Source of the DNA: an uncultured Myxococcales bacterium
Lineage (GTDB): Bacteria; Myxococcota_A; UBA9042
Assembly: GCA_903917305.1 (NCBI GenBank)
Contig: CAIXAA010000264.1
Span: 1-27,740, forward strand
Direction of reading: 5' to 3'
DNA: 27,740 nt
Part shown: in pieces, positions 1 through 19,004 of the stretch
How the letters are laid out: the number at the start of each line of letters is the position of its first letter
Numbering within the stretch: the first letter of the stretch is position 1
Notes under the pieces: model-generated
Seen by the model: the letters and a program-made list of their open reading frames with translations, nothing else
What the model was told of the DNA's origin: nothing
Databases searched by the model: none
Translations under genes and position numbers: made by a program

Positions 1-1
1 C

Positions 2-496
2 ACGCAGCCGGATTCGAGCCACCTGTGGCTGCTGCAAGTGCGCGTCGACCCGAGCGCGTCCAAGAAGGTGTGGGAGGAGCGCAAGAAGCTCGCGACCGAC
101 CTTCGCGACCAGATTGCCAACAAGCACGGTGACTTCGCGGCGCTGGCCAAGCAGTACTCGGGCCACGAGAGCAAGGCGCAGGGCGGCGATCTCGGTTGGC
201 TGCACGGCGGCACGCTGGCGGACGATCTGGACAAGCCGGCGGCGCTGCTCAAGGTCGGCGAGGTCTCCGGTCTGATCGAGAACATCTATGGCTTCAACAT
301 CATGAAGCTTGTCGAGAAGAGGGCGGCGCGCCAGCTGAGCTACGACGAGATCGACAAGGCGTTCTGGAAGGCGGAGCTCGAAGCCTCCTGGACGCGCGAG
401 CGGCGCGAGGCCGGCGAGGCCCGGCTGCGCAAGGGCGCGAAGATCCAGCACTTGGACACGGCCGTCGAGAAGTGCCGCCACGCGCGCTGGAACTAG
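2..496 (+). CDS. PpiC/parvulin-type peptidyl-prolyl isomerase (SurA/PrsA-like), 5'-truncated by the window edge
   Basis: Parvulin signature FAALAKQYS..ESKAQGGDLGW...GEVSGLIENIYGFNIMKL. The frame is open from base 2 (TQPDSSHLWLLQVRVDP...), so the true start lies upstream of the window. Confidence 0.85.
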   Translation, partial: TQPDSSHLWLLQVRVDPSASKKVWEERKKLATDLRDQIANKHGDFAALAKQYSGHESKAQGGDLGWLHGGTLADDLDKPAALLKVGEVSGLIENIYGFNIMKLVEKRAARQLSYDEIDKAFWKAELEASWTRERREAGEARLRKGAKIQHLDTAVEKCRHARWN

Positions 497-511
497 GCTC
501 TTCCTCAGCCG

Positions 512-1864
512 TCAGTGGCACTTGTTGGCGGGATCCGAAGACGAGCAGGAACGGCGGCTCTGGTACGGGAATTCCCGAATGTTCAACCAAGGATAGAGCA
601 GGGCGCCGCGCCGCACGCCGAGCGGGCCCTGGCTGCCGTGCGCGTCGTGGCAGTAGCTGCAGCCGATCTTGTCGCCCTTCATCCAGGACGTGTGGCTGAA
701 GTGCAAGTTCGTGGCCTTCAAGGCGAACTCGCTGGCGCGGATGCCCGGGTTGCGCACCTCGGCGAGGATGTTCGTCGCACCCGGCCAGCTGCCGTCGTGG
801 CACAGCAGGCAGTAGGTCGGGGAGCTTTGCGCGGCCGGCTCCGGCAACACCATGACATTGTACGGTGTATCGTCGGAGTTGATGAGGTTGGGCACGACCG
901 TCGTGTCGCGCGGGTCCGTCAGAATGCGGCGGTCATAGGCCACCGCGGCGCGCACGACGTGCGGGTCGTGGCAGGTGCTGCAGGTCATCCGGCGCGTCTC
1001 CGTGCGGCCCAGCGGCGAGGAACTGCCGTGGCGCGAGACCGCTGTCGCCATCGCGGTGAACTGCGCCTTGTGGCACGGACCGCAGGTCAGCGGCTCCCGG
1101 TCGCGCAGCAGCGCGGTGCCTGGGGCGGCGTTGTGCGACGTGTGGCACGTCGCGCAGCCTAGGGATTGGCCGAACACCTTGCCGGGCGCATGCGCCGAGA
1201 GCGGAAACTCCCGCATGTTATGGCAAGTGCGGCACAAAATGTCGTCCTTGGCCGTGATCACCAGGAACTTGCCGAGGCCGTTGCTGTGCGCGTCGTGGCA
1301 GGACGTGCACTGCAATTTACCATTGCGATCGAGGAGATCCGCGGCGATCGAGCCGCCCAGGCCGCTCGGCGCCGTGGCGGCCGGCACGAGGCCTGCCCGC
1401 GTCGCGGAGACGCCGGCGCCGTACACCACCGACACCGGGTGATCATTGGATAAGTCCGGGCCCAGCGCCTGGCCCGTCGGCGGTCGCATCGACGCACCCG
1501 CGGCCGCATCGTTGGCCACGCGGCGCAGGGTCGGCGCGACCTGCCCGTCATGACACGACAAACACAGCTTGGAGCTGCCGTCCGGCTGCCCCGCCGCCAG
1601 CTCGCCGCGCTGGCTCTCGTACGTGCGGTACGCGAGGTCCGGCGTCACGATGTTCCACAGCGGCCCTTCGCCGCCTGCGAAGTGCGGGGTGTGGCAAAAG
1701 GCGCAGGAGTCGCCCGGCGCACCCGCCTGCGCGCCTTGCTGCGTCAAGTCGTGCGGCCCGCCGCGAATGCCGACGGTCACGCCGCGGTCGCGCGCCAAGG
1801 CAGGCATCGAGCAGAGCGTGATTGCCAGGCAGATGAAAATGCTGCGAATTCCGTTTCCATGCAT
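512..1864 (-). CDS. Secreted multiheme c-type cytochrome: 9 CXXCH plus a C-terminal CX8CH; N-terminal four-heme domain is OmcE-like
   Basis: Start reassigned to ATG 1864 (GGAG-CATGCC-ATG, just after the beta-barrel stop at 1882). Signal peptide MHGNGIRSIFICLAITLCSMPALA. Motifs: CAFCH, CLSCH, CTSCH, CRTCH, CATCH, CGPCH, CSTCH, CLLCH, CSYCH, CSSSDPANKCH. Confidence 0.9.
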   Translation of the reverse strand: MHGNGIRSIFICLAITLCSMPALARDRGVTVGIRGGPHDLTQQGAQAGAPGDSCAFCHTPHFAGGEGPLWNIVTPDLAYRTYESQRGELAAGQPDGSSKLCLSCHDGQVAPTLRRVANDAAAGASMRPPTGQALGPDLSNDHPVSVVYGAGVSATRAGLVPAATAPSGLGGSIAADLLDRNGKLQCTSCHDAHSNGLGKFLVITAKDDILCRTCHNMREFPLSAHAPGKVFGQSLGCATCHTSHNAAPGTALLRDREPLTCGPCHKAQFTAMATAVSRHGSSSPLGRTETRRMTCSTCHDPHVVRAAVAYDRRILTDPRDTTVVPNLINSDDTPYNVMVLPEPAAQSSPTYCLLCHDGSWPGATNILAEVRNPGIRASEFALKATNLHFSHTSWMKGDKIGCSYCHDAHGSQGPLGVRRGALLYPWLNIREFPYQSRRSCSSSDPANKCH

Positions 1865-1881
1865 GGCATGCTCCGTTTCCG

Positions 1882-3843
1882 TCACAGCGGACGACCGACA
1901 CTGAGGAAGACGCGGTGGTTCTGGTACTGCTGATCCGGCGTCAACCGCATCTGCAAACGATAGTCCAACCGCAGCGTGATCGCCCGCATTCGCCAGAGCA
2001 GCGTTGTTTCGCCGTCCAGCGACTTGTTGCTGATGCTCGGACTCTCCTGGTCGAGGACGCGCCAGCGCCACTCCAGCGCCGCCGGGCTGCTCGCGCTGAT
2101 GTTGCCCTCGGTGAAGGCCTCGTAGTTCTTGCGCAATTCTGTCGGCAAGTCCTGGATGATGGCGCGCACGCCGAAGGACGGTCGCACCGGTCCGATGATG
2201 CCGCGCACCGCCAAAGAGCCGTTGTATTCCGTGGTTGTTACGCCCAGGGTGCGGTAGCGCCGCGTCTCTGCCGTCGCGGAGAGCGAGCCGACGCTGGCGG
2301 ACATGCCGCCGCCCAGCGTCTCGTAGCGGTCGTGCAAGACCGCTTCGCCATCGGTGCGGCGCTGGCTCCAGCGTTCGGACAGCTCCGCGAACATCGTGAT
2401 ATTGTGGAAGTAGGACGAGAAGATGCGCGCGGAGTAGCGGTGATCGACGGCGGTGCGGCCCTGGGAGGTCTGCGTCGTGTACTGGTAGTTGACGTAGACG
2501 CTGTCGCCGTCGGGGATCTCGGTGGCGACAAGTCTGCGAATGTACGTTTGATCTCCGGCCGTGCCCACCTCGTAGTCGATGCCGAGCCGGTACTTCTTGT
2601 TGGTCGTCTGCGACAGCACCACAACGGTCAACACGCTGACATTCAAGTGCATCAGCACCGTCGGCTGCATGCCGTTGAGCGTCTGCACTTCGTTGACCGC
2701 CGACTGCGTGCCGCCCGGCAGACCGCCGTTCTCGCGCGTGCCAAGGAACTGATAGTTGTGCGACATCACAGCGAAAGAGGAGAGCCGCTTGCGGTACATC
2801 ACGTCTTCGCCCAGGGAGCCCAGCAGCTGCGAGCCGCCCGGCACCTGCTGGCCGCCGCCCTGCACCATCGTGCCGAAAAACAGGCTTTGATACAGGCGGT
2901 AGCGCGTGTCGATGCGGCCCAGCTGCTGCAGCGACGACGTCGTCTCGTCGCGCTTGGCGTTGAGCTGGTAGTCGAGGCGCGACTCCAGCTCCGGCAGCCA
3001 ACGCGCGGTGCCGAGCACCGTGAAGTACCCGTCATCACGCCGCATGTCCGAATCGCGCCGAATCCAGCGCAGCCGCGTGTCGATGCGAAAACGCCGCAGT
3101 GTCACATCGCCCGGATAGAGCACGTGGAACAGCGCCAGGTCGTGGCTCAAGTAGTTGAGATCCGTCATCTTGACGTTGTCGTACTTGTAGAAGCGGTACT
3201 CCATCGTCGCGTTCTGCCGCTCGCCGTCGTAGCGCACGTCGCCGGAGCCTTGCATGAACGTGTCGTTGCCGAAGTCCGTGCCGCCCGTGCCGAAGTCGTT
3301 GGCCATCCTCGAGAAGGCCGCGCGGACGGGGAACAGGTTGTTGCGCCAGTTCCAATCGACACCCTCGGTGGTCTTGGTCACGTCGTAATTGTTCACGAAG
3401 TCGCGGCGCACGATGTCCGTGTACTGCCGCGCGAACAGGTGCAGCGGAAAGGCCCGCGATTTCAGAATGGATGTGTCGGCGCGGTACTCGACCTTGGTGG
3501 AGTTGAACGGCACCGTCCGCGTCGTGTCATCGCTCTTCTGCTGCATGAACAGGACCGTGCCGCCCAGCTCCCACGACCAGAACTGCGGGGCCAGGATGCT
3601 GCCGCGCGCCAGGGCGCCAATGCGCTCGCCCACCAGCGCGGAGTAGCTGTGCGAGCTGTCCTTGGCGTCCTTGAACAGGTCGTAACCGCGGTACTGGTAG
3701 CCGGACACCAGCTCGTACGCGCCGCGGATGTCGTCGAAGTGCAGCCACTGCAGCTTCTTTTTCGCGGCCAGCGCCTGCGACGGGCACAGAAGCACCGCGG
3801 CGATCGCCGCCAGGAGCAGCAGCCGCGCGCGCGCCGGCTTCAT
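1882..3843 (-). CDS. Large outer-membrane beta-barrel protein of porin-cytochrome type (653 aa)
   Basis: ATG 3843 overlaps the upstream cytochrome stop (ATGA). Signal peptide MKPARARLLLLAAIAAVLLCPSQALA. Many alternating hydrophobic/polar beta-strands rich in Tyr/Trp/Arg, C-terminal strand RVFLSVGRPL, no heme motifs, and flanked by cytochrome genes. Confidence 0.75.
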   Translation of the reverse strand: MKPARARLLLLAAIAAVLLCPSQALAAKKKLQWLHFDDIRGAYELVSGYQYRGYDLFKDAKDSSHSYSALVGERIGALARGSILAPQFWSWELGGTVLFMQQKSDDTTRTVPFNSTKVEYRADTSILKSRAFPLHLFARQYTDIVRRDFVNNYDVTKTTEGVDWNWRNNLFPVRAAFSRMANDFGTGGTDFGNDTFMQGSGDVRYDGERQNATMEYRFYKYDNVKMTDLNYLSHDLALFHVLYPGDVTLRRFRIDTRLRWIRRDSDMRRDDGYFTVLGTARWLPELESRLDYQLNAKRDETTSSLQQLGRIDTRYRLYQSLFFGTMVQGGGQQVPGGSQLLGSLGEDVMYRKRLSSFAVMSHNYQFLGTRENGGLPGGTQSAVNEVQTLNGMQPTVLMHLNVSVLTVVVLSQTTNKKYRLGIDYEVGTAGDQTYIRRLVATEIPDGDSVYVNYQYTTQTSQGRTAVDHRYSARIFSSYFHNITMFAELSERWSQRRTDGEAVLHDRYETLGGGMSASVGSLSATAETRRYRTLGVTTTEYNGSLAVRGIIGPVRPSFGVRAIIQDLPTELRKNYEAFTEGNISASSPAALEWRWRVLDQESPSISNKSLDGETTLLWRMRAITLRLDYRLQMRLTPDQQYQNHRVFLSVGRPL

Positions 3844-4769
3844 CGGGCGCCTCCGGCCTTGGGCACCTTGCGCGGCGCGCTCTTGGGATCCGGCCGCAGC
3901 ATGTAGCGCTTGCCGGAGCCGTGCGGATCGTGGCACTTCGTGCAGCCCTTCAAGTCTCCGTTTTCATGCGGGGAGCGGCTGCGCAGGTCGGCTTCCAGGT
4001 GGCAGTGGTTGCAGAGGGCGTCGCCGCGGATCTTGAGCAGCGACTTCTCCTTGCCGCCGTGGCCGCCGTGGCACAGCGTGCACATGCCGGCCGCCACCGG
4101 GCCGTGCAGGGGCGCGCGTTTGCGCATATCGTTGAAATGGCAGCGACCGCACACCTGCAGGCCGGTCTTCAAGAACGACGGGCCCTTGCCGCCGTGGCCG
4201 TCGTGGCAGTCGGTGCAGTTGCGGTCTGTTCCCAAGGGCTTGTGGCGCGTGGCGAAGCGCGTCTCTTTGTAGTCGTGGCAGTGGGCGCAGAGCTTCTCGG
4301 GCGTCTCGCGCAGAAGCTTTTGCCATTCGCTTTGATGCGGCTCATGGCAGACGAGGCAGGAGCCATCGCCGACCGGAGCGTGCGCCGGCACCAGGATGAC
4401 CTTCTCCTTCTTGTGGCACGTCAGGCACAGATCCGAAGCGCGCACCAGCGGTCCGCGATCGATGATGTCGTGGCAGGCGCGGCACTGCCGGTTCAGCCAG
4501 GGCGGATGCTCGCTGTGCTGCGGAAAGATGGCGCTTTCGCCGGCATCGCCGGTCAGCGTGTCGGTCTGCACCGTGTCGCGCATGCTCTCCGGCGGCGGCA
4601 CGCCGTCGAAGAAGAACGACAGCACTTCATGGCGTTGTTCTGGCGTGTGGCAGCCCGTCGCCAGCAGCGCGACGATCAGCAGCAAGCAACGGACGGCCGT
4701 GCAGCCTGCGCGGCCTGGGACCGGTGCAGCGCAAGCTGGAGGCTCGTCCGGAGGGTTCGCCACGGCCAC
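3840..4769 (-). CDS. Nonaheme c-type cytochrome lipoprotein (paired CXXCH...H type)
   Basis: Probable GTG start at 4769 with GAGG 6 nt upstream; exact start uncertain. Lipobox LLATG-C. Motifs: CRACH, CLTCH, CLVCH, CAHCH, CTDCH, CGRCH, CTLCH, CNHCH, CTKCH. Confidence 0.88.
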   Translation of the reverse strand: MAVANPPDEPPACAAPVPGRAGCTAVRCLLLIVALLATGCHTPEQRHEVLSFFFDGVPPPESMRDTVQTDTLTGDAGESAIFPQHSEHPPWLNRQCRACHDIIDRGPLVRASDLCLTCHKKEKVILVPAHAPVGDGSCLVCHEPHQSEWQKLLRETPEKLCAHCHDYKETRFATRHKPLGTDRNCTDCHDGHGGKGPSFLKTGLQVCGRCHFNDMRKRAPLHGPVAAGMCTLCHGGHGGKEKSLLKIRGDALCNHCHLEADLRSRSPHENGDLKGCTKCHDPHGSGKRYMLRPDPKSAPRKVPKAGGAR

Positions 4770-4785
4770 ACAACGCCTCGCCGGA

Positions 4786-6015
4786 TCAGGGCGCCTTGGG
4801 CGTCGTAGCCGGCTCGGGGAGATCTTCGACGTCGCCCAAGCCCTTGGGAGTCGTCGGTGCGGCCGTGCCTGATGGCACTGCTGCCTTGGCAGGCGCCGGC
4901 AGGTCCTTCTCCGGTCCCAGCCAATCGCCGAATCCGTAGACATTCACGCGGCGTGCGCCGTACTGGCTGACCACGAGGATGACATGGCGCACCTTGAGCC
5001 GCACATCGGCCAGCTTCTGGAAGCGCTCGATGCCCCGCGCCGAGATGTCGATGCCCGCCGGCAGCACCAGGTTGCCCGGATCGTTGCCCGGGCCGCCAAA
5101 GAACAGCAGCAGTTGTCCATCCTTGTCGAAGATCTGCACGTTCTCGAACGCGGCGTCGACGGCATACAGCCGCCCATCCGGGTCGATCGCCACGCCCTTG
5201 GGCCGCGAGAAGCCGCCAGGACCGTCGCCCAGGCCGCCGTACATGCGCACGTGGGTGCCGTCCGGGTGCAGGCGCTGCACGCGGAAGTTGCCGGTCTCCG
5301 AGACGTAGAGGTCGCCGTCGGGCCCGACCGCGACGTTGGTCGGGATGTAGAACTTGCCCGGATCCTTGCCGCCGCCGCCGATGCGGCGCTTGACGGCGCC
5401 GGTCAGCCGGTCGAACACGATGATGTCGTTGTTCTTGAGGTTGCAGACGTAGACCTCGTCGTCCTTCACCGCGACGCCGGCGGCCTTCATCAAGCCTTCG
5501 GTGCCGTAGGCGCGCAGGAACGACTCGTCGGGGCCGTAGGCGAGCACCTGGTTGCGGGTGCCGTCCGCGACGTAGATGGTGCCGTCGGGCGTCGAGGTGA
5601 CCTGCATCGGTTGGCGCGCGCGGCCGCCGCCGGTGTTGCCCTTGAGCGGGCGGAACTCGTGGGCGGCCAGATCGAGAACGAAGATCTCGTGCGCACTTGC
5701 GTCCGACACGACGACGCGATCGCCGACGAGTGAGGCGCTGTACGGCTTGCCCAGCCCGCCCTTGGACGCGTCGTCCTTGCCGACGACGAACTCCGACAGG
5801 GCGCTGGTTTGCTCGATGTCCTCGGCCGACGTGTAGGACGTGAGGAACTGGATGCGCGGCCGGTTGGGCAGGGGCGGGTAGAAGACGGCGCTGCCCTTGC
5901 CGTTGTCGGTCGCGCCGCTGCACGCGGACAGCAGGGCGATCAGCGCACAAACGGCCCAGGATCCGAGGCGGGTCACTGGATGGTCAGACTTGGGATGGGG
6001 ATGAGGACCGGGCAT
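4786..6015 (-). CDS. NHL-repeat 6-bladed beta-propeller lipoprotein
   Basis: ATG 6015 with AGGA 7 nt upstream. Lipobox LLSA-C. N-terminal FYPPLPNRPRIQFL. Repeated NHL blades: PTNVAVGPDGDLYVSETGNFRVQ, RPKGVAIDPDGRLYAVDAAFENVQIF, QPMQVTSTPDGTIYVADGTRNQV. Confidence 0.9.
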   Translation of the reverse strand: MPGPHPHPKSDHPVTRLGSWAVCALIALLSACSGATDNGKGSAVFYPPLPNRPRIQFLTSYTSAEDIEQTSALSEFVVGKDDASKGGLGKPYSASLVGDRVVVSDASAHEIFVLDLAAHEFRPLKGNTGGGRARQPMQVTSTPDGTIYVADGTRNQVLAYGPDESFLRAYGTEGLMKAAGVAVKDDEVYVCNLKNNDIIVFDRLTGAVKRRIGGGGKDPGKFYIPTNVAVGPDGDLYVSETGNFRVQRLHPDGTHVRMYGGLGDGPGGFSRPKGVAIDPDGRLYAVDAAFENVQIFDKDGQLLLFFGGPGNDPGNLVLPAGIDISARGIERFQKLADVRLKVRHVILVVSQYGARRVNVYGFGDWLGPEKDLPAPAKAAVPSGTAAPTTPKGLGDVEDLPEPATTPKAP

Positions 6016-6257
6016 GACGGCATCCTTGTCGGCGGCCGGACGCTGTTGGCGGCCGGGGTCTGCAGCCGGGTCCGGAAGTCCCTGGCCGAGGCAGGGCGGA
6101 GCGCAGTGCAGCGTTGGCGGCGTCCGGACTTGCGACCGCAATGCACAGGATGTGCACGGTGCTGCTCACTAGCAGAAGGCACTGAGGTGGTCAACGCGAC
6201 GGAGCGCCCAGCCGGCCGCGTTCCCTTCCTCGCCTGGCGCACGGGCCAGGCACCGCC

Positions 6258-6281
6258 CCCCGCCGCCCGAAGACGACGGGG
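6258..6281 (-). other. Stable RNA hairpin with a C(UUCG)G tetraloop 3' of the omcE-like gene (mRNA stabiliser or partial terminator); second hairpin at 6232-6251
   Basis: Minus strand reads CCCCGTCGTC-TTCG-GGCGGCGGGG (10-bp stem, 2 G-U pairs), followed by GCCTGGC-N6-GCCAGGC. No U-tract follows. Confidence 0.6.
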
Positions 6282-6297
6282 AGCAGCACCGCAACAA

Positions 6298-6933
6298 TTA
6301 CTTGTTGTGGCAGGACAGGCACAGCGCGCTGCCGTTGTTCAGCATGCGCAGGAACTTGCCCTTGGAGTTGTCATGGACGCTATGGCACGTGGCGCACTGC
6401 ATCTGGGCTCCGAAGAGCGGCAGAATGCTGGCTGCGTCGACGTACTTGTCGCTGACCGGGCTCTTGAGGCCACCGTCCGACGTGGCCAGGGCCGCGTCGT
6501 ACGTGAACGAAATCGGGTGATCATTGGTCAGATCAGTCCCGAGCTTCGCGCCACCCGGATCCATGAAGTGCGTACCAGCGTTGCCGCCGTACGAGTCCAG
6601 CGCGACGGTACCGTCGTGGCAGGACAGGCACAGCTTGGACGTACCCGTCGGCTGACCGACGACTGCGTTCAAGGTAGCGCTGGTGTAAGCACTAAAGGTC
6701 GCAACAGTCACAGCGTGGTTCCACAGCGGGGCGCCCGGGACGGCCTGAGCGTTGTGTGGCGTGTGACAGAAAATGCAGATCTGGGTTGTACCCCAGCCCT
6801 GCGCGGAAAGGTCGTGGGCCGTACCAGCGATGCCAGCTTGCGCATCACGGGCCGGAGCCAGAACCACAAGCAACAGACCGGTCAGCACCATTGCTGCCGT
6901 CGTCAAGAAAGGAAACCGGCTAAGAGATCTCAT
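6298..6933 (-). CDS. omcE: OmcE-like tetraheme c-type cytochrome, candidate cytochrome-nanowire subunit (211 aa, ~178 aa mature)
   Basis: ATG 6933 with GGGAGG 7 nt upstream. Sec signal ending AQA. Motif order matches Geobacter OmcE as recalled: HDLS, CIFCHTPHNAQ, PLWN, SKLCLSCHDG, LGTDLTNDHP, CATCHSVHDN, FLR, GSALCLSCH at the extreme C-terminus. Confidence 0.8.
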   Translation of the reverse strand: MRSLSRFPFLTTAAMVLTGLLLVVLAPARDAQAGIAGTAHDLSAQGWGTTQICIFCHTPHNAQAVPGAPLWNHAVTVATFSAYTSATLNAVVGQPTGTSKLCLSCHDGTVALDSYGGNAGTHFMDPGGAKLGTDLTNDHPISFTYDAALATSDGGLKSPVSDKYVDAASILPLFGAQMQCATCHSVHDNSKGKFLRMLNNGSALCLSCHNK

Positions 6934-6956
6934 TACCATTCCTCCCAATGTGGGTC

Positions 6957-7005
6957 GACGACCCGTCTTGCTGCGCATGCAGCGGAACGAGTAGACGACC
7001 CGTCT
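6957..7005. repeat. 12-bp direct repeat GACGACCCGTCT (6957-6968 and 6994-7005), each copy self-complementary (GACG-N3-CGTC), in the omcE-like 5' UTR
   Basis: Two exact copies read directly, 37 nt apart, between the sigma54 motif and the RBS. Confidence 0.7.
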
Positions 7006-7017
7006 GCGAGGCTGTGG

Positions 7018-7033
7018 TGCACACGGCGTGCCA
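7018..7033 (-). promoter_or_regulatory. sigma54 (-24/-12) promoter for the omcE-like operon
   Basis: Minus strand TGGCACG-CCGT-GTGCA with exact GG-N10-GC spacing, ~85 nt upstream of ATG 6933 and next to a sigma54 activator gene. Confidence 0.75.
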
Positions 7034-7142
7034 AACAGGACCGCAAGCTGCAAGCCGCTGAGAGTAAAGGGTTGTGTGGGTATTGCCGCGATCGTGTAGC
7101 CGGTCTGCGGCTGCGTCATCCGACGCAGTGCGCCGCCACGCG

Positions 7143-8621
7143 CTACTTGAGCAGGCCGAACTTGCGCAGCCGGTAGCGCAGGAGGTCGCGGCTCACGCCG
7201 AGCAGGTTCGCCGCCTGCACCTGGTTGCCACCGCAGCGCAACATGGCCTGGCGCAAGATCTCTTGTTCGAGGTCGTGCAGGCCGATGGTGCCGTCGAGCT
7301 TGAGTTGCAGGACGACCTCTTCGCCTTCCGCCACCGGCGACTCCGCCGCGTGCGCGGTCGGATGCGGCAGCGGGGGCGGCGGGGGCGCAGCCCCGGCAGG
7401 CAGCTCCGGCGGAAGAGGCAACGCCGTCCGCAGCCTCTGGATCTCGTCGGGCAGCACATCGATGCGCACGAGCGGATCGCGGTCGGACAGCACGATCGCC
7501 GCCTCGATCACGTGGCGCAGCTCGCGCACGTTGCCCGGCCAGGCGAAGGCACGCAGCACGGCGCGCGCCTCCGGCGAGAAGCCGGTGACCTGCGAACCCA
7601 TCTCGCGTGCGAAGATGCCGAGGAAGTGATCCGCCAGAAGATCAATGTCTTGCACACGGTCGCGCAGCGGCGGCAGGTTCAGCGTGAGGACCTTCAAGCG
7701 GTAGTACAGGTCCTCGCGGAACTTGCCGGTCGCCACCAGATCGCGCAGGTCGCGGTGCGTCGCCGTCACGATGCGCACGTCCGCCTGGACCTCGCGCGTG
7801 CTGCCCAGGCGTCGGTAACTGCGCGTTTCGATGAAGTGCAGCAGCTTGGCCTGCATCTCCACCGGCATGTCGCCGATCTCGTCGAGCAGCAGCGTGCCGC
7901 CGTTGGCCTCTTCGAGCAGACCGCGCTTGGCGACGCGCGCATCGGTGAAGGCGCCACGCTCGTGACCCATCAGCTCGCTCTCGATCAGCGTCTGCGGCAC
8001 CGCCGCGCAGTTGATCTCGACGAACGGCGAATGCTTGCGGTCACTCAGCTCGTGCAGCGCGCGAGCGAACACGCTCTTGCCCACGCCCGTCTCGCCCAGC
8101 ATCAGCACGGTGCTGCGCGGCGTGTGCGCGAAGCGGCGCAGTCGGTCGAGCAGCAGCCCCATCGACGGGTGGGCGCTGTAGATGCCGAGCCGCGCCAGAT
8201 CCTCGGTCGAGGGCAGTTCCGCCGGCGCGGGCGCATTGACCGCTTGGATGCGCGCCAGCGCGTCGAACAGGTTGTCCGCTTCGAACGGCTTGGAGAGGTA
8301 GTCGTTGGCGCCCAGGCGCATCGCCTCGACCACCGTCGGCACATCGCCAAAAGCGCTGGTCACGATGACCTTGGGGCGGTCGCTCGGCGACAGCTCCTGC
8401 AGCAGATCGAGGCCGCGGCCGTCCGGCAGACGGATGTCCAGCAGGATCACGTGGGGCTGCGATCGCGCCAGCACTTCGCGCGCCTCAGCGAGCGTGGCGG
8501 CAGCCGTTGGGATATAACCCCAGCGTTTCAAGTCTTTGCACGTGGACCAGGACAGCAGCTTCTCGTCCTCGATGACCAGGACGTGCGTTCCGGGTTCTAC
8601 GCGACCAGCAGCGATGGGCAT
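7143..8621 (-). CDS. NtrC-family sigma54-dependent response regulator (REC - AAA+ - Fis-type HTH)
   Basis: REC: VLVIEDE...[10 protein letters not shown]...YLSKPF. Walker [15 protein letters not shown] loop, Walker [35 protein letters not shown]: [20 protein letters not shown]. Start taken at ATG 8621 (AAGGT upstream). Confidence 0.95.
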
Positions 8622-8764
8622 CGGATGAACCTTGCACCGGCATGTCTGCGCGGCGCCCTTCGAGGGCCGGGACGTTACCACACCCTCGCGTGCGTAGCCA
8701 TGATCCATGCAGGTTGCGCGCTGACTGTGTGTGGAGCGTTTCACTTTGATGCGACTTCGTGACT

Positions 8765-8780
8765 TGGCACGAATCCAGCA
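8765..8780 (+). promoter_or_regulatory. Putative sigma54 promoter for the kinase-cytochrome gene
   Basis: TGGCACG-AATC-CAGCA with GG-N10-GC spacing. The -24 box is perfect, the -12 box is degenerate (CAGC rather than TTGC). 64 nt upstream of ATG 8845. Confidence 0.5.
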
Positions 8781-8844
8781 GTACCTTCCTGCGCGATCTT
8801 CGGGCAGTCATGCGGCCGCCCTCTCCCAGACAAGGCAAACGTAG

Positions 8845-11800
8845 ATGTGCGCCGCACCTCACAATCCGCGGTCTGGAGTCTGGCGTGCCGCCGGCCCGTG
8901 GCGTTGGATCGTGTGGGTCGACTCGCTCGTCTCGACCGTGCCTGGCCGCGTGTTCCTCGCGACCCTGGCCGTGCTCGTCGTCACCAGTTACGTGTTGATG
9001 AACGTGCTGTTCCAGGAGGACCGCTTCCACGCGCTGACCGAGCCGCAGCGCCAGGCGGACACGGAGGCGGCGCAGCGCACGCTGGAACTCTCTCTGCTCA
9101 AACAGGATCCACGGCAGGTGGACGCGGACCTCGTCGCGATCAGCCGCCGCCTGCCGAGCATCGTGCGCATCGACGTGGCAGGTCCGGATGATCTTGTGCG
9201 CTATTCGACGTTGCCGCAGGCGCTGGGGCGGCCGCCGACCCTGCTCGACGCAGCGACGGCGCGGATGGCGGCAGCGCACGGCGTTTCCATCGAACGCTCC
9301 GGCGATCCGGGGCGCCACGTCCTGGTGCGCCCGGTGCTGCTGCCGCCCACGTGCGCCAATTGCCACCGCGGTTCGTTCGACCCTGATCTCGGGCGCATGT
9401 ACGTGGTCACGGACAACGTCGCGGCGATCCAGGCGCTGCGGGGTACGACGCTGTCCGTGCTGCGCCTGCTGGCCGTGATCGTGCTGGTCCTCGCGATCGT
9501 GCTGGGCATCTACGTGCACCTGAGCTTCATCGTCCCCGCGCGGCGTTTTGCCGATCACCTGCGCCAATTGGGCGATGGTCCGGCGCCGGGGATGGTCGAT
9601 GTGGCCACGCTGCCGGCCGAACTGCGCCAGATCGCGCACGCCTTCAACCGCGGCGTCGAGAGCCTCATCGCCGCGCGCCAGGAGGTCGAGCGCCTGCAGC
9701 AGGAGCGCCTCGCGCACGTCGAGCGGCTGGTCAGCATCGGCCGCTTGTCCGCGATGCTGGCGCACGAGATTCGCAACCCGTTGGCCGGCATCTCGAGCGC
9801 CGTGCGGATCCTGGCCGAGGAACTGCCGATCAAGGAAGAACATCAGGAGATCGTGGATGAATTGCAGCGGCAGGTGAAGCGCTTGTCGCGCACCTTGACC
9901 GAGTTGCTGTCCTCCTCGCGGCCCCACGACCCGGTGCCCGGTCGCCTGTGCCCGCAGGAGGCGGTGGCGCGCGCGGCGCACATCGTGCAGCCGGCGTTCG
10001 AGCGGCGCGGTCTGCACTTCGTCGTGAGCATGGAGCCCGACACGCCGGCGGTGTACGCGGACGAGGAGTGCCTCGTGCAGGTGCTGCTCAACCTGCTGGT
10101 CAATGCCGAGCAGGCGGTGGCCGGCGCGGGGCTGGTGCGCGTCGACGTGCACCGCTCGTCGGACAACGACGGGATGGTGGCGATCACGGTGGCGGACAAT
10201 GGTCCGGGCATGCCGCCGGAGGTGCTGGCGCGCGTCGGCCAGCCGTTCTTCACGACCAAGAAGGAAGGCACGGGCTTGGGGCTGGCGATCAGCCGCGAGA
10301 TGGTGGAGCGCATGGGCGGCCGGCTGCTGGTCGCCTCGCCGCCGGGGCAGGGCGCGAGCGTGACGGTGATGCTGCCGGCCTTTGCCGACCAGGCGGCGCC
10401 GCAGAACCCGGAGCTGGACGTGGAGCCGAACGCGACGGTCGGGCTCATGCCGCGCCGCCACTGGAAGACGCCTGGGACCGGGACGGAGCTGGGCATCGGC
10501 CTGCTGGCGCTGCTGGGTGCGCTGTGGCTGCTGCCGGCGCCGGCGCTGGCGGCGCCGCGCAAGGTGCCGGTGGCGGCCAAGCCGCTGCCCAAGCCGGGGC
10601 CTTCGTGCGTGACGTCGGCGTGCCACAAGTCGGTGCTCAAGAAGCCGGATCGGCATGCGATGTTGCGGCCTTCGACCTGCTCCTTGTGCCACCAGCCGAT
10701 GCGGCGGCCGGGCGTGGTTCCGCGCGAAGGTGCGCCGGAGCCGTTCGGCACGGAGCTTGCCCTGCAGAACAGCAAGTCGCACCCGGCGGGTGGTTTCCAG
10801 CCCGTGCGCGAGCGGTTGCGGGCGCGCATGGGGCCGCCGCTGCCGACCAGCGGGCCGATCGGCGGCGTGGGCGGTTCACCGGAGGCGGGGCCGCACAGTC
10901 GCGCAGCACGCGGCAATTGCACGCTTTGTCATGATCCGCACGCGGCGGCCAAGGACCACCTGCTGCGCAAGCCGGTGCCGGGGCTGTGCATGATGTGCCA
11001 CCAGAAGACCTGGCCGCGCACGAAGTTCACCCACGCGCCGGCGGCGATGGGCGATTGCCTGGACTGCCACGTGCCGCACGCCGGCCGGATCCGGCCCAAC
11101 CTGCGCACCACCCAGCCGGAGCTGTGCTTCGATTGCCACACGGAGATGAAGGAGCGCCTGTCCAAGGTGCGCCTGCATCCGCCCGTCGCGGAGCGCTGCA
11201 GCCTGTGCCACGGCCCCCACGGCGGCAACCACCGCATGTTCTTCAAGGAGGAGGGCAATGCGCTGTGCCTGTCCTGCCACAAGGCGATCGAGCAGCACGC
11301 CAAGACCGCGCCGTTCAAGCACAAAGCCCTGACCAAGGCGTGCACGTCCTGCCACGATCCGCACGGCACGCCGGAGCCGCGCCTGCTGCGCCAGCCCATG
11401 GTTGCGCTGTGCACGTCCTGCCACGAGAAGGTCGGCAGCGAGGTCGGCGCGGCGCATTTCCTGCACGGCGCCCTCGACCGCGGCAGCTGCACCGGCTGCC
11501 ACGATCCGCACGGCGGCAGCTTCCAGGCGCTGCTGCGCGGCCCGTTCCCGGTCAAGAAGCCGTACCAGGCGTTCGAGGGCGATCCGTACGGCCTGTGCTT
11601 TCTCTGCCACGAGCGGATGCTGCTCGAGAGCGGCAAGCCGCCGCGCACCGGCTTTCGCAACGGCGACAAGAACTTGCACCATGTTCACGTGGCGCGCGGC
11701 GAGAAGGGGCGCTCCTGCATGCTGTGCCACTCCCCGCATGGCGCCGACCAGCCGCACATCCTGCGCGAGGAGATGCCGTTCGGCTCGGCGAAACTGCCCA

Positions 11801-11931
11801 TGGAGTTCACGGCTTCACCTGATGGTGGCAGCTGCAAGTCGGCGTGCCACGAGGTGCGCAAGTACGCGCGCCGCGACATCGTGAAGGTGGCGCCGTTGCC
11901 CGCCGCGCCGACGCCGACCACCAAGAAGTAA
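8845..11931 (+). CDS. Sensor histidine kinase (TM - heme-c periplasmic sensor - TM - HAMP - HisKA - HATPase_c) fused in frame to a signal-like segment and a 12(+2)-heme cytochrome c
   Basis: Periplasmic PPTCANCH; H-box LAHEIRNPL; N-box QVLLNLLVNA; G1 DNGPGM; FFTTK-EGTGLGL. Then LGIGLLALLGALWLLPAPALA, CVTSACH, 12 CXXCH and CKSACH. No stop codon between the kinase and cytochrome parts. Confidence 0.88.
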   Translation: MCAAPHNPRSGVWRAAGPWRWIVWVDSLVSTVPGRVFLATLAVLVVTSYVLMNVLFQEDRFHALTEPQRQADTEAAQRTLELSLLKQDPRQVDADLVAISRRLPSIVRIDVAGPDDLVRYSTLPQALGRPPTLLDAATARMAAAHGVSIERSGDPGRHVLVRPVLLPPTCANCHRGSFDPDLGRMYVVTDNVAAIQALRGTTLSVLRLLAVIVLVLAIVLGIYVHLSFIVPARRFADHLRQLGDGPAPGMVDVATLPAELRQIAHAFNRGVESLIAARQEVERLQQERLAHVERLVSIGRLSAMLAHEIRNPLAGISSAVRILAEELPIKEEHQEIVDELQRQVKRLSRTLTELLSSSRPHDPVPGRLCPQEAVARAAHIVQPAFERRGLHFVVSMEPDTPAVYADEECLVQVLLNLLVNAEQAVAGAGLVRVDVHRSSDNDGMVAITVADNGPGMPPEVLARVGQPFFTTKKEGTGLGLAISREMVERMGGRLLVASPPGQGASVTVMLPAFADQAAPQNPELDVEPNATVGLMPRRHWKTPGTGTELGIGLLALLGALWLLPAPALAAPRKVPVAAKPLPKPGPSCVTSACHKSVLKKPDRHAMLRPSTCSLCHQPMRRPGVVPREGAPEPFGTELALQNSKSHPAGGFQPVRERLRARMGPPLPTSGPIGGVGGSPEAGPHSRAARGNCTLCHDPHAAAKDHLLRKPVPGLCMMCHQKTWPRTKFTHAPAAMGDCLDCHVPHAGRIRPNLRTTQPELCFDCHTEMKERLSKVRLHPPVAERCSLCHGPHGGNHRMFFKEEGNALCLSCHKAIEQHAKTAPFKHKALTKACTSCHDPHGTPEPRLLRQPMVALCTSCHEKVGSEVGAAHFLHGALDRGSCTGCHDPHGGSFQALLRGPFPVKKPYQAFEGDPYGLCFLCHERMLLESGKPPRTGFRNGDKNLHHVHVARGEKGRSCMLCHSPHGADQPHILREEMPFGSAKLPMEFTASPDGGSCKSACHEVRKYARRDIVKVAPLPAAPTPTTKK

Positions 11932-11943
11932 GGGATTCGGCAG

Positions 11944-12774
11944 CTACTTCTTCAGCTTGTCCACGCAAGCCTGCTTGCCCGCGAGCGCTTCCGCGTGGGC
12001 CGCATCCAATGCCAGCGCCTTGTCGAACGCGACGATGGCGTCCTTGCACTTGTCTTGCGCCGACAGGATGTTGCCGTGCAGCGCGTGTGCCGGCGCCTGG
12101 GCGGCATCGATCTCCAGGCTCTTCTGCACGGCCTCCAGCGCCTTCTCCAAGTTGCCGGACTTGAAGAGCATTCCCGCGAGCTTGAAGTAGCGCCGCGCCG
12201 CCGTCAGATCGACGCCGACCTTGGACGCCGGCGGACTCAGCACGTCAGCCAGCTGTTTCTCCGTGATCTCACCCAACTGGAACAGCACGCGCGCCTTGAC
12301 CGTCTCGCAGAAGTTGATCTTCATGAACGGCACGAAGGCGATCAGCTTGTGCGCGCCGTCCGCAATGACCACGAACGGCAGCTGCGCCGCTTCCAGCGCG
12401 CCGTACACCGCGTCGCCGGCATCGAGCAGCACCGGCATGGCCACGCCAGCTTCCCCAATCGCCGTCTTGACTTCCGCGGGCGTGAAGCGGTCCGAGACGA
12501 TGCCCGTCCAGCGCAGCGGCTTGCCGGAGAGCTCGCGCTCGCACAGCGCCATCTGCTTCATCACGTCGCGCGAGTGGTCCTGATCCGGCCGAAAGAAGAA
12601 CAGGATCTGCGCGCCCTCTTTGCCCAGCAGGTGGCGCTTGCCGCCCTGCACGGTAGCCAACTCCGCATCGGCAATCACGGTTCCGTTGGACGCGTGCGCC
12701 GTGGCAAACGGGCTGTGCAGGCCCGCCCAGAGCACCGCGCAAGCCATCAGCAGCGAGCGGTGCGCCACTGTCAT
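11944..12774 (-). CDS. Exported thioredoxin-fold (TlpA/redoxin-like, lacking CXXC) plus TPR protein
   Basis: ATG 12774 overlaps the cytochrome stop (ATGA). N-terminal signal. Redoxin fold FFFRPDQDHS...PVLLDAGDAVYGALEAAQLPFVVIAD. C-terminal TPRs: LEKALEAVQKSLEID; AHALHGNILSAQDKCKDAIVAFDKALALD. Confidence 0.75.
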   Translation of the reverse strand: MTVAHRSLLMACAVLWAGLHSPFATAHASNGTVIADAELATVQGGKRHLLGKEGAQILFFFRPDQDHSRDVMKQMALCERELSGKPLRWTGIVSDRFTPAEVKTAIGEAGVAMPVLLDAGDAVYGALEAAQLPFVVIADGAHKLIAFVPFMKINFCETVKARVLFQLGEITEKQLADVLSPPASKVGVDLTAARRYFKLAGMLFKSGNLEKALEAVQKSLEIDAAQAPAHALHGNILSAQDKCKDAIVAFDKALALDAAHAEALAGKQACVDKLKK

Positions 12775-13976
12775 GGCGCCGCCTGCGCGTTGCCGGCGGT
12801 CTTGACGACGTTCACGTAGGTCTTGGCCGTGTGGCAGGTCTTGTCGCAGGTGCCGCCATCGGCGTTCTTCTTGTAATTGACCTGCAACAACCAGCCCTTG
12901 GAGCCGAACGGCACGCTGTCGCGCACCTGGAACGCCTGCTTGGAGGCGTGGACCTCGTGGCACGCCCGGCAGGTGCGGCCGCGGTCCGGCTTGTTCACGT
13001 GGACGAAGTGCAAGTTCCGGTTGCCATTGCGAAAGCGCGTCGCCGTCGTCGTCTCCTTGGTGCTGATCATCTTGGAGTCGTGGCACTCGAAGCACAGCGC
13101 GTAGTTCTCCGGGTTGAAGGGGGCGTAGAAGCGCGCCGGGTAGACCTCGCCCAACAGCCGGAAGTTGTCGCCGCCGTGCGGCTGGTGGCACGCGCTGCAG
13201 TCCTTGTCCGCCACAGGCGCGTGGTGCACCGGGTTGTCGTCGAGCAAGGTCTTGAAGTTCACCAGCTTCTTGCCGTCGCCGTCCGTGATGTCGTCCTTGC
13301 TGTGGCAATTCACACACAGGTCAAAAGGCAGCGCAATTAGAAGCTTTTCGATGTTCGATGCATGCGGATTGTGGCAATTGACGCAGGACGCGCCCTGGGT
13401 CAGCGCGCCGTGCTGCACCCGCGCCTCCATCTTGCTCTTGATCTTGGTGTGGCAGCCGACGCACAGGGCGGGCGGCCGCGACACCAGCAAATGCGGCTGC
13501 TTGGAGTTGTGCGGGTTGTGGCAGTTCGTGCAGTTCTCTTCGGCGACGATGTGGCGCGCCTTGCGGCTGGCGAAGAGGTCGGTGAACTCGTCGTGGCAGC
13601 TGAAACACACCTTGTTCACGGGCTTTTGCGCGGGGCCCGGGTCCTTCGGGTCGTTCTTGGCGTGGCAGATGCTGCAGTCGCCGCTGGCGTAGGGACCGTG
13701 CGCCGACACCGCCTCCTTGTTGTCGCAAGGCGAGACATTCACGGGCTTTCGCTGCGGCGCGGAGATGTCTTTGTAGTTCGCGCCCGCCCCCTGCTCGACT
13801 GGCGCGCCCGCCGCGGGCTTGTCCGATGGCTTGCCGGGCGCCGCGGGGGCAGCGGGAGCCTTCTTGTCCGGCTTCTTGCCCTTGGCTGCCAGCGCCGGCG
13901 CCGCCGAAAGCGTCAAGGACAGCGCGACGAGCGCGGCCAGGATGGGAAAAAGTGTAGCCGAAATGCGTGCTTTCAT
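12771..13976 (-). CDS. Periplasmic multiheme cytochrome c, 9 CXXCH plus a C-terminal CX3CH (probably decaheme)
   Basis: ATG 13976 with GAGG RBS. Signal MKARISATLFPILAALVALSLTLSAAPALA. Motifs: CSICH, CFSCH, CTNCH, CVGCH, CVNCH, CVNCH, CSACH, CFECH, CRACH, CDKTCH. Confidence 0.92.
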   Translation of the reverse strand: MKARISATLFPILAALVALSLTLSAAPALAAKGKKPDKKAPAAPAAPGKPSDKPAAGAPVEQGAGANYKDISAPQRKPVNVSPCDNKEAVSAHGPYASGDCSICHAKNDPKDPGPAQKPVNKVCFSCHDEFTDLFASRKARHIVAEENCTNCHNPHNSKQPHLLVSRPPALCVGCHTKIKSKMEARVQHGALTQGASCVNCHNPHASNIEKLLIALPFDLCVNCHSKDDITDGDGKKLVNFKTLLDDNPVHHAPVADKDCSACHQPHGGDNFRLLGEVYPARFYAPFNPENYALCFECHDSKMISTKETTTATRFRNGNRNLHFVHVNKPDRGRTCRACHEVHASKQAFQVRDSVPFGSKGWLLQVNYKKNADGGTCDKTCHTAKTYVNVVKTAGNAQAAP

Positions 13977-14043
13977 GGAGTCCTCGGAAGGGGCTGTCGC
14001 CTGTTGCGCGCCACCATCGCAGGCCGCGCGCGCCGTGAGGGCC

Positions 14044-14059
14044 TGCAAGAACCGCACCA
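14044..14059 (-). promoter_or_regulatory. sigma54 promoter for the decaheme cytochrome / redoxin-TPR operon
   Basis: Minus strand (C)TGGTGCG-GTTC-TTGCA with GG-N10-GC spacing and a perfect -12 TTGCA, 67 nt upstream of ATG 13976. Confidence 0.65.
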
Positions 14060-14142
14060 GGGCAGGGCGCGTCCGCCGGATTGCCGTCTGCCGTCCGCCG
14101 TGGCACAACCGCGCCAGCCGCCGTGGCGGCGCAGGAGGAAGC

Positions 14143-15513
14143 ATGACCGCGAAAAGCAAAGCGATGACCTCGGATGCGCGCGCCGACGACTACATCGCCT
14201 GGTTGACGGGCGCCGTCACGCCGCCGCACGCCGTTCTCGCCTGCACGGAACGCTTGCTGCGTGCGGGGTTCCAGCCGCTGACGCTCGCCGCGCCGTTGCA
14301 GCCGGCGGTCGGCGATCGCCGCTTCGTCGTGCATCCTGACGGCAAGTCGGTGATCGCGTTCGTGGTTGGCGAGCGCTCCCCGGTGGCGACCGGCTTCGCG
14401 CTCGTCGGCGCGCACACGGACAGTCCGGATTTGCGCTTGCGCCTCAACCCGATGGCCGCGGCGGCGGGCACGGTGCAGTTGACGACGCAGTTGCACGGCG
14501 GCCTCATCCGCCGCTCCTGGCTCGACCGCCCGCTGGCGCTGGCTGGCACCGTGTTCGAGGTGCTGCGCGGCCGCGGTGGCAAGCCCGTGTTCCACAAGCT
14601 GACCGGGCAGCCCGTGCTGAACCGTCACCTCGTGCACATCGATGAACCCGTTGCCATCATTCCGGATCTCGCCATCCACATGGATCGCGAGAAGAACGAC
14701 AAGGGCGCCATCAACCCGCAGACGCAACTGAACGCGGTCCTGGCGAGCGGCGACTGGGATGCGGAGCGCGTGATGCGCGAGCTCTCGCAGCGCACCGGCG
14801 TGCAGCTGGATCGCGTCGACGGCTTCGATCTGCACCTCGTGCCGTGGCACAAACCGATGCGCGCCGGCCTGGATCGTTCGCTTGTGCTGGGGCCGCGCCA
14901 TGACGATCTGGCGATGGTCTACTGCGGGCTGGAGGCGCTGATCGCCTCGGTGGTGCGCGACCCGACGCCGGTGCGCACGCGGGTGGCGGCGTTCTTCGAT
15001 GCGGAGGAGACCGGCTCGCAGACGGCTTCGGGCGCGGCGTCGGCCTTCCTGCGCGACGTGCTCGTGCGCCTGACGCGCCGGCACCCGGACACGGACAGCG
15101 CGGCGGACCCGGAGCAGGCGTTTGCCGAGACGATCTGCCTGAGTGCGGACATGGCCCACGCGCTGCATCCGAACTACATGGAAGTCCACGACAAGCAGCA
15201 CGCGCCGACCATCAACGGCGGCCCGGTCTTGAAGGCCAACACGAACGATCGCTATGCGACGACGGGTGAAACGGCTGCGATCTTCGCGGGTCTATGCGAA
15301 GCGGCGGGCGTGAAGGTGCAGGACTTCGTGATGCGCCAGGACATGGCGTGCGGCACGACCATCGGGCCGATCACGGCGGCGTCGCTGGCGGCGCGCACGG
15401 TCGACATCGGCTGCCCGATGTGGGGCATGCACTCGAGCTGCGAGACGCTGGGTGCCCACGATCTGGCGGCGATGACCGACGTGATGCGCGTGTTCTTCGT
15501 CGGCGGCGCGTAG
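14143..15513 (+). CDS. M18 family (aspartyl) aminopeptidase
   Basis: AGGAGG RBS before ATG 14143. Metal-ligand motifs GAHTDSP, RHDDL, FDAEETGS, SADMAHALHPNY, GPVLKANTNDRYAT, CGTTIGP, DIGCPMWGMHS. Confidence 0.93.
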   Translation: MTAKSKAMTSDARADDYIAWLTGAVTPPHAVLACTERLLRAGFQPLTLAAPLQPAVGDRRFVVHPDGKSVIAFVVGERSPVATGFALVGAHTDSPDLRLRLNPMAAAAGTVQLTTQLHGGLIRRSWLDRPLALAGTVFEVLRGRGGKPVFHKLTGQPVLNRHLVHIDEPVAIIPDLAIHMDREKNDKGAINPQTQLNAVLASGDWDAERVMRELSQRTGVQLDRVDGFDLHLVPWHKPMRAGLDRSLVLGPRHDDLAMVYCGLEALIASVVRDPTPVRTRVAAFFDAEETGSQTASGAASAFLRDVLVRLTRRHPDTDSAADPEQAFAETICLSADMAHALHPNYMEVHDKQHAPTINGGPVLKANTNDRYATTGETAAIFAGLCEAAGVKVQDFVMRQDMACGTTIGPITAASLAARTVDIGCPMWGMHSSCETLGAHDLAAMTDVMRVFFVGGA

Positions 15514-15624
15514 CTGGGGACCTAAGCCCCCACCCGCCATTGCCAGCTTGCCCGTGCGCCTCCGCTTCCGCTAGTCTCGACGCCGATGGGGCCGCTGCGC
15601 CTCACGATGCCAGGGAGCCACGCC

Positions 15625-18867: not shown

Positions 18868-19004
18868 CGTCCGGTTCCGCGGCCTCCTGGCCGGCACCGG
18901 CAGCGTAGTCGCAGCGTGGATGGGGAGCAACTGCCGCGCTTGCCGCTTGACCCAAGCCGCGGAACGCGCAAGATCCGCGCGCCGCGGGCTCCCTCCCGCG
19001 TCAG

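Follow-up and report, generated by a model that had tools for sequence, protein, structure and literature searches.

A putative OmcE-type cytochrome nanowire operon with an MtrAB-like outer-membrane conduit in an uncultured lake-water Myxococcota

How does a filament built of multihaem cytochromes leave the cell, stay attached to it and receive its electrons? The question has been raised by reviews and by a structure paper (PMC12307469, PMC13712944), and it arises again at a locus of an uncultured Myxococcota from lake water, where five co-oriented genes (g1 to g5) and their promoter occupy positions 512 to 7033, on the minus strand, of a 27,740-nucleotide stretch of DNA (contig CAIXAA010000264.1 of GenBank assembly GCA_903917305.1; hereafter the window). 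On the evidence of sequence, we consider it probable, at roughly 60%, that these genes form an operon for an OmcE-type extracellular cytochrome filament ('nanowire') together with an MtrAB-like outer-membrane electron conduit. This reading is supported because the published content of omcE clusters, synteny, the fold of the barrel, the match to MtrA and the conservation of the promoter all agree. An initial annotation of the same DNA had proposed a nanowire operon that was complete and self-contained, and apparently outside Geobacter; the nanowire proposal is upheld by the OmcE homology, the barrel model, the OmcE-headed cytochrome g5 and the conserved gene order, whereas neither its completeness nor its location outside Geobacter as something special could be sustained.

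The five proteins of the operon

All five genes are found where the initial annotation had placed them and are spaced as it described, with 282 nt between g1 and g2, 16 nt between g2 and g3, an ATGA overlap of g3 and g4, and 17 nt between g4 and g5; g3 and g4 are translationally coupled through the overlap. Gene calls on a public contig with the same DNA give identical lengths of 211, 409, 309, 653 and 450 amino acids (aa).

The first gene (g1; 6298..6933, minus strand) encodes an OmcE-family tetrahaem cytochrome of 211 aa, the putative filament subunit, with a Sec signal that ends in AQA before a G, and four CxxCH motifs. It matches both OmcE proteins with solved filaments, that of Geobacter sulfurreducens (PDB identifier 7TFS) with E=7.7e-32 over residues 15-211 and that of D. 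soudanensis (PDB identifier 9YUQ) with E=1.8e-24. The CxxCH motifs at C53, C102, C180 and C205 align with those of 7TFS, as do the four distal histidines His40, His60, His139 and His187, which lie in the short motifs HDLS, TPH, DHP and VH, and all eight sites are invariant in an alignment of 16 homologues. We therefore regard g1 as a true OmcE homologue, as had been suggested. Petersen et al. select nanowire-competent homologues by the presence of barrel and propeller lipoprotein genes nearby, and g1 has both in g4 and g2. Three further OmcE paralogues, 90%, 70% and ~55% identical to g1, are present elsewhere in the genome (contigs C412:4202-4828, C235:7814-8473 and C946:3485-4297, respectively). 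Their short contigs contain no barrel or OmcE-headed gene, and the genome as a whole has one of each; several filament subunits may share one machine.

The second gene (g2; 4786..6015, minus strand) encodes an NHL β-propeller lipoprotein of 409 aa with the lipobox LLSAC, which is recognized by the Pfam NHL family (E=1.1e-21) and matches NHL propellers of the PDB down to E=3e-41. The third (g3; 3840..4769, minus strand) starts with GTG and encodes an MtrA/DmsE-like lipoprotein cytochrome of 309 aa with the lipobox ATGC and nine CxxCH motifs, which matches MtrA of the Mtr complex (PDB identifier 6R2Q, chain A) with E=1.9e-13.

The fourth gene (g4; 1882..3843, minus strand) encodes 653 aa with a signal peptide that ends in ALA before an A, falls into no family of Pfam or NCBIfam, and models as a very large outer-membrane β-barrel. 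The AlphaFold2 (AF2) model has a mean predicted local distance difference test (pLDDT) score of 87.7 and is all-beta, with ~30 long strands. Its best match in the PDB is MtrB (PDB identifier 6R2Q_B), with a Foldseek E-value of 6.7e-9 and a VIA-align Z-score of 20.2 over residues 38-651. MtrB is also the sole full-length structural match, and the ushers, LptD and TonB-dependent receptors align in part. The expectation that this protein would model as an outer-membrane barrel is thus borne out by both AF2 and Foldseek. An exhaustive search recovered a barrel family of 325 representatives at E<=1e-3, whereas a word-indexed homologue search gave one relative. Conservation within the family is highest in a small beta domain that is inserted between strands, at residues ~376-461 of g4 (window 2461-2718, minus strand). 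This inserted domain bears a weak resemblance to the small beta domain found in tail-tube and sheath proteins of phages (NCBIfam tail_tube_6XGR, E=0.0014; structural template modelling (TM) scores of 0.67-0.75 in the Atlas), and it is also found in stand-alone open reading frames (ORFs) of ~260-380 aa in Desulfobacterota genomes.

The last gene (g5; 512..1864, minus strand) encodes a cytochrome of 450 aa with nine CxxCH motifs and a terminal CX8CH. As the initial annotation had claimed for its domain content, g5 opens with a full OmcE module, which spans residues ~22-216, carries four haems and is matched by the OmcE profile with 8e-45 over residues 18-216; against the solved structures g5 scores E=9.5e-24 (PDB identifier 9YUQ) and E=2.2e-17 (PDB identifier 7TFS). 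Five CxxCH motifs and the CX8CH follow. The protein is collinear with 38 eleven-haem homologues, among which all nine of its CxxCH motifs are invariant, but it falls short of that family in lacking the full eleven CxxCH motifs and a C-terminal region of ~110 aa, and it ends at the tenth site, where CX8CH (in the last 11 codons, window 515-547, minus strand) replaces CxxCH. The short form with the CX8CH end is common to five relatives of myxobacterial type (L007, L009 and L112-L114), in which the stop codon comes immediately behind the CH or seven codons past it. By alignment, g5 can be assigned as a shortened orthologue, a lineage variant, of the conserved eleven-haem OmcE-headed cytochrome. 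The CX8CH is possibly a non-canonical haem site, and it might need a dedicated lyase. Ten residues past the OmcE module g5 has an additional invariant histidine, His225, which fits the 'ninth histidine' that Petersen et al. expect of an anchor and might just as well serve the following haem as its distal ligand. The notion that the eleven-haem protein is a tandem of OmcE modules was rejected, as one full module scores, together with weak partial repeats.

Gene order, promoter and regulators

Related loci were sought with an OmcE-alignment probe, scanning one genome per species. The OmcE family proved to be very large: homologues occur in at least 592 species genomes, and 7475 of 8000 scored candidates pass E<=1e-5. 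Among the best 80 OmcE-homologue loci, 67 carry a member of the g4 barrel family on the same strand, and these fall under ~12 phylum-level labels, among them Verrucomicrobiota, Kiritimatiellia, Planctomycetota, Bacteroidota, Ignavibacteria, Chlorobiota, Calditrichota, Gemmatimonadota, Acidobacteriota, Deferribacteres, Sumerlaeota, several proteobacterial classes and Desulfobacterota. The order that recurs is OmcE, NHL, a small MtrA-like cytochrome and the barrel, followed or accompanied nearby by a second NHL gene and an OmcE-headed cytochrome of ~560 aa with 11 haems, in which an OmcE module takes up the first 200 residues. An NHL gene comes next after the OmcE gene in nearly all related loci, and in 45 of 46 loci the cytochrome encoded directly ahead of the barrel is homologous to g3, with five haems in 38 loci and nine in six. 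The same order was also found in an evenly drawn Desulfobacterota sample of 301 genomes, whose loci include neither G. sulfurreducens nor D. soudanensis.

Nearer to the host, the barrel was found in three of 60 searched relatives (two of 36 in the same family, and one in another family of the class), so that the cluster is patchy in the host lineage. All three barrel-bearing relatives, as well as 82%-identical relatives from metagenomes, share a compact order of OmcE, NHL, a 9- to 11-haem cytochrome, the barrel and a short OmcE-headed cytochrome with the CX8CH end. A gene order not conserved in relatives had been named beforehand as an observation that would speak against the proposal; in the relatives that have the barrel, the order is kept. 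The full cluster is also carried by a cultured Flavobacteriaceae isolate, Aestuariivivens marinum MT3-5-12 (L083; NZ_JAKMCR010000002.1, 6001-15800), in the order NHL, OmcE-headed 11-haem cytochrome, OmcE, NHL, 9-haem cytochrome, barrel and 10-haem cytochrome.

By the definition of Petersen et al. (mBio 2026, PMC13712944), the omcE cluster of Desulfuromonadia contains at least OmcE and a large barrel along with two multihaem cytochromes and two propeller lipoproteins. By this published content, the present operon is alike in its OmcE tetrahaem with all haem ligands, its large barrel, its propeller lipoprotein, its two multihaem cytochromes and their common orientation. It differs in its sigma-54 control with an adjacent pair of haem-bearing kinase and activator, and in that none of the annotated genes of the window was identified as a glycosylation gene. 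OmcE homologues with barrel and propeller have been reported in five phyla (PMC13712944). A location outside Geobacter is for this reason, and in view of the ~12 labels found here, hardly noteworthy, although Myxococcota is not among the five phyla listed. The cluster type, published in 2026 and spread over many phyla, is already known, and the Myxococcota operon is a further member of it, not something categorically new. What is specific here is a compact variant, with one propeller in the operon, a nine-haem barrel partner where most related loci have a five-haem one, and an OmcE-headed cytochrome which, compared with its counterparts in related loci, is shortened to nine CxxCH motifs and a conserved CX8CH end.

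Other systems resemble the operon in part. The OmcS osc cluster (Shen et al. 2025), as far as it is described in PMC13712944 and PMC13194489, similarly joins a subunit gene to companion cytochromes, proposed folding or secretion factors and a porin-like component, but its subunit family is the hexahaem OmcS. With MtrCAB of Shewanella (PDB identifier 6R2Q) the operon shares a homologue of MtrA in g3, a barrel whose best structural match is MtrB in g4, and a cytochrome gene placed immediately ahead of that of the barrel; unlike MtrB, g4 has ~30 rather than 26 strands and an inserted domain, and shows no sequence similarity to it. An MtrC-like decahaem lipoprotein is absent, as none of the operon's proteins scores up to the MtrC/OmcA family thresholds, and the outer partner would be g5 with the filament. 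In peat Acidobacteriota and Verrucomicrobiota, four types of conserved, syntenic porin and cytochrome clusters with 'OmcE-like' and 'MtrA-like' models have been reported to be transcribed in wetlands (bioRxiv 10.64898/2026.05.27.727921). By their description these clusters can be likened to the present one, and our locus scan did find the omcE-type cluster in both Verrucomicrobiota and Acidobacteriota; the preprint, however, regards them as conduits of divergent sequence and leaves nanowires out of its discussion.

The sigma-54 promoter that the initial annotation had placed ahead of the operon is a -24/-12 element, TGGCACGccgtGTGCA, at 7019..7033 on the minus strand (TGGCACG-N4-GTGCA, with GG-N10-GC), identified by pattern match and conservation. 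It is the sole exact match to TGGCAC-N6-TGC in the window, where matches with one mismatch are as frequent as expected by chance, and it lies 86 nt ahead of the ATG of g1. The element recurs before the OmcE gene at 87% OmcE identity in L007/L008, and again at 65% in L114 (TGGCACC..GTGCAA) and L113 (TGGCATC..GTGCAA). By sequence, it thus combines the GG-N10-GC signature, a suitable distance, conservation and a nearby activator gene. In the g1-g2 spacer, GTGCAC-N5-GTGCA looks like a further sigma-54 motif, but it was rejected because it has no GG and is not conserved in relatives. A motif scan found no promoter of sigma-70 type.

The next gene upstream of the operon, in identical position in L007/L008, encodes a sigma-54-dependent response regulator (7143..8744, minus strand; start codon uncertain) with receiver, AAA+ and Fis helix-turn-helix domains (Pfam Response_reg, Sigma54_activat with E=1.5e-64, and HTH_8), which is likely the activator of the operon. 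Divergent from it lies the gene of a histidine kinase fused to a multihaem cytochrome (8845..11931, plus strand; Pfam HisKA, HATPase_c and Paired_CXXCH), a single ORF of 1028 aa with many paired CxxCH motifs. An orthologue of 1030 aa occupies the equivalent place in L007/L008, the 82% relative, and the fusion is therefore not an assembly artefact. The haem-bearing kinase is likely the sensor partner of the regulator.

Ten nucleotides past the stop codon of g1 begin two GC-rich hairpins (6232..6287, minus strand), a 16-bp stem with a UUCG loop followed by a 7-bp stem. The pair has a folding free energy (dG) of -47.1 kcal/mol (z=-4.1), and none of 200 shuffled sequences folds equally well. L007/L008 retain the first hairpin, in which a C-G pair has become U-A through compensatory change. 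No U-tract follows the hairpins; terminator-like sites with a T-run are no more frequent than in shuffled sequence, and none lies after g1. The hairpins are possibly an attenuator, or a stabilizer of the mRNA, between the subunit gene and the machinery genes, and the layout would fit a subunit transcript made in excess over that of the machinery. Beyond them, two non-coding blocks of the g1-g2 spacer (6016-6230, minus strand) are near-identical in the 82% relative, where their flanks have diverged or been deleted. No Rfam family matches positions 1-9000 of the window, these blocks included.

Filament, conduit or secretion pore

If the operon is a nanowire operon, its parts may be thought to work together as follows. 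The g1 protein would be exported and would polymerize outside the cell by histidine-haem ligation between subunits, giving a haem wire, while g2 would aid assembly on the inner side of the outer membrane and the hairpins after g1 would raise the ratio of subunit to machinery. As MtrA does in MtrB, g3 would sit in the lumen of g4 and carry electrons across the outer membrane. At the filament end nearest to the cell, the OmcE head of g5 would dock as a further subunit does, and the extra haems of g5 would extend the chain towards g3 and g4, so that the wire is both anchored and charged. The two-component system would turn the operon on in response to the redox state, and electrons could flow either way, out to iron or manganese oxides or humics, or in.

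For g5, this scheme can be taken further. A question of how filaments are anchored or capped has been raised (PMC13712944), and the OmcE-headed cytochrome, including the eleven-haem form found elsewhere, might be the cell-proximal end-piece of OmcE nanowires, with the head as last subunit, His225 closing a haem that would otherwise be left to a next subunit, and the remaining haems plugging into the MtrAB-like conduit of g3 and g4. We put this forward as a possibility that is rather doubtful; if true, it would explain how wires are anchored and charged across the ~12 phyla that carry the cluster.

Several observations weigh against the nanowire reading as a whole. It is drawn from homology and synteny, from which we infer the filament, its extracellular location and the contacts among g3, g4 and g5, and is to that extent supported. 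The claim that the operon is complete and self-contained is not supported as stated, given the single propeller in the operon where the published minimal content has two, and the OmcE paralogues elsewhere in the genome. At 108 bits, g3 stays below the NCBIfam DmsE cut-off of 192, and it has nine haems rather than ten. The sequence of g4 matches no MtrB or PioB family in Pfam, NCBIfam or the PDB and, as ushers and LptD are among its structural neighbours, a secretion-pore role for it is equally open. For g5, AF2 modelling from an alignment of 41 sequences gave a pLDDT of 43.8, too low for the model to be of use, and no OmcE-like candidate for an end-piece was seen in OmcE operons by Petersen et al. 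(PMC13712944). One peat and one wetland metatranscriptome speak for the reading in that they contain contigs with 97-99% identity to g1 (in part ~99%) and, at lower depth, to g2 and g4, but these RNA-library contigs are without strand information and may include DNA.

The better of two rival explanations is that of an ordinary porin-cytochrome conduit of Mtr/Pcc type that makes no filament, in which g3, g4 and g5 would form a trans-outer-membrane complex and g1 a monomeric tetrahaem shuttle or periplasmic partner. It would account for an MtrA-like g3 and a structurally MtrB-like g4 whose genes overlap as in mtrA/mtrB-type pairs, and it gains from the fact that the filament evidence is confined to members of the Desulfuromonadia, and from the wide distribution of OmcE-like tetrahaems, not all of which need form wires (PMC13712944). 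We nevertheless hold it to be unlikely. The g1 protein has all the haem ligands of the OmcE proteins that form filaments, and it is nearer to G. sulfurreducens OmcE than are four subunits tested from Desulfobacterota clusters (E=5.5e-22 to 6.8e-10); its gene, next to the promoter and set off by hairpins, has the layout of a major-subunit gene, and the genome holds four OmcE paralogues to one barrel.

Less likely still is a barrel that serves mainly as an usher-like secretion or assembly pore for g1, helped by the NHL lipoprotein, with g3 and g5 as electron donors that are not threaded through it: FimD/PapC ushers and LptD rank high in the Foldseek results for g4, the conserved inserted domain is absent from MtrB, and a porin-like secretion or anchoring role is discussed for the omcE cluster (PMC13712944) and favoured for the big barrels of omcE and omcS regions by Petersen et al. 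and by Shen et al. 2025, as the latter are cited there, but the full-length match to MtrB and the joining of an MtrA-like gene to the barrel gene in 45 of the 46 loci are explained by an MtrAB-type arrangement and not by a pure usher, and pore and conduit roles are compatible with each other.

Read as a nanowire operon with a conduit, the locus contributes, from a myxobacterium, a compact example under sigma-54 control to a cluster very widespread in sediment, lake and wetland bacteria, and offers a clean five-gene unit that could be expressed as one piece for testing the idea of anchor and conduit. In ecological terms, it suggests an ability of uncultured Myxococcota to exchange electrons with solid or polymeric partners at lake redoxclines.

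Neighbouring genes and host genome

The host genome is a metagenome-assembled genome (MAG) from lake water with 998 contigs, 90.7% completeness and 3% contamination. That the host is Myxococcota-like, as judged initially from the DNA, agrees with its RecA, which is closest, at 79-84% identity, to that of named 'Deltaproteobacteria' and Myxococcales MAGs, and 71% identical to that of Anaeromyxobacteraceae. Two recA genes of the MAG lie above the family cut-off (C349:4621-5589 and C587:1462-2403), either a genuine duplication or a trace of contamination. Myxococcus carries two recA genes.

Convergent with g5, the window begins with the 3' part of a gene for a SurA-like peptidyl-prolyl isomerase (PPIase; 2..496, plus strand; Pfam Rotamase, E=4.6e-18), which on public contigs is complete with 368-370 aa and SurA_N and Rotamase domains, and which is possibly a periplasmic chaperone neighbour of the operon. 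Past this gene, outside the window, public contigs (L007 and L011) have a second NHL gene together with a 13-haem cytochrome. On the far side of the kinase gene, 11944-14159 on the minus strand encodes a cytochrome with nine CxxCH motifs (Paired_CXXCH, E=1.5e-48) and weak similarity to an MtrC domain, followed by a tetratricopeptide repeat (TPR) protein; this cytochrome-TPR unit stands beside the kinase gene in L007 as well. Further along, 16606-18930 on the minus strand encodes a protein of 774 aa with a DUF2169 domain (E=3.4e-46), which is unrelated to the cytochrome operon.

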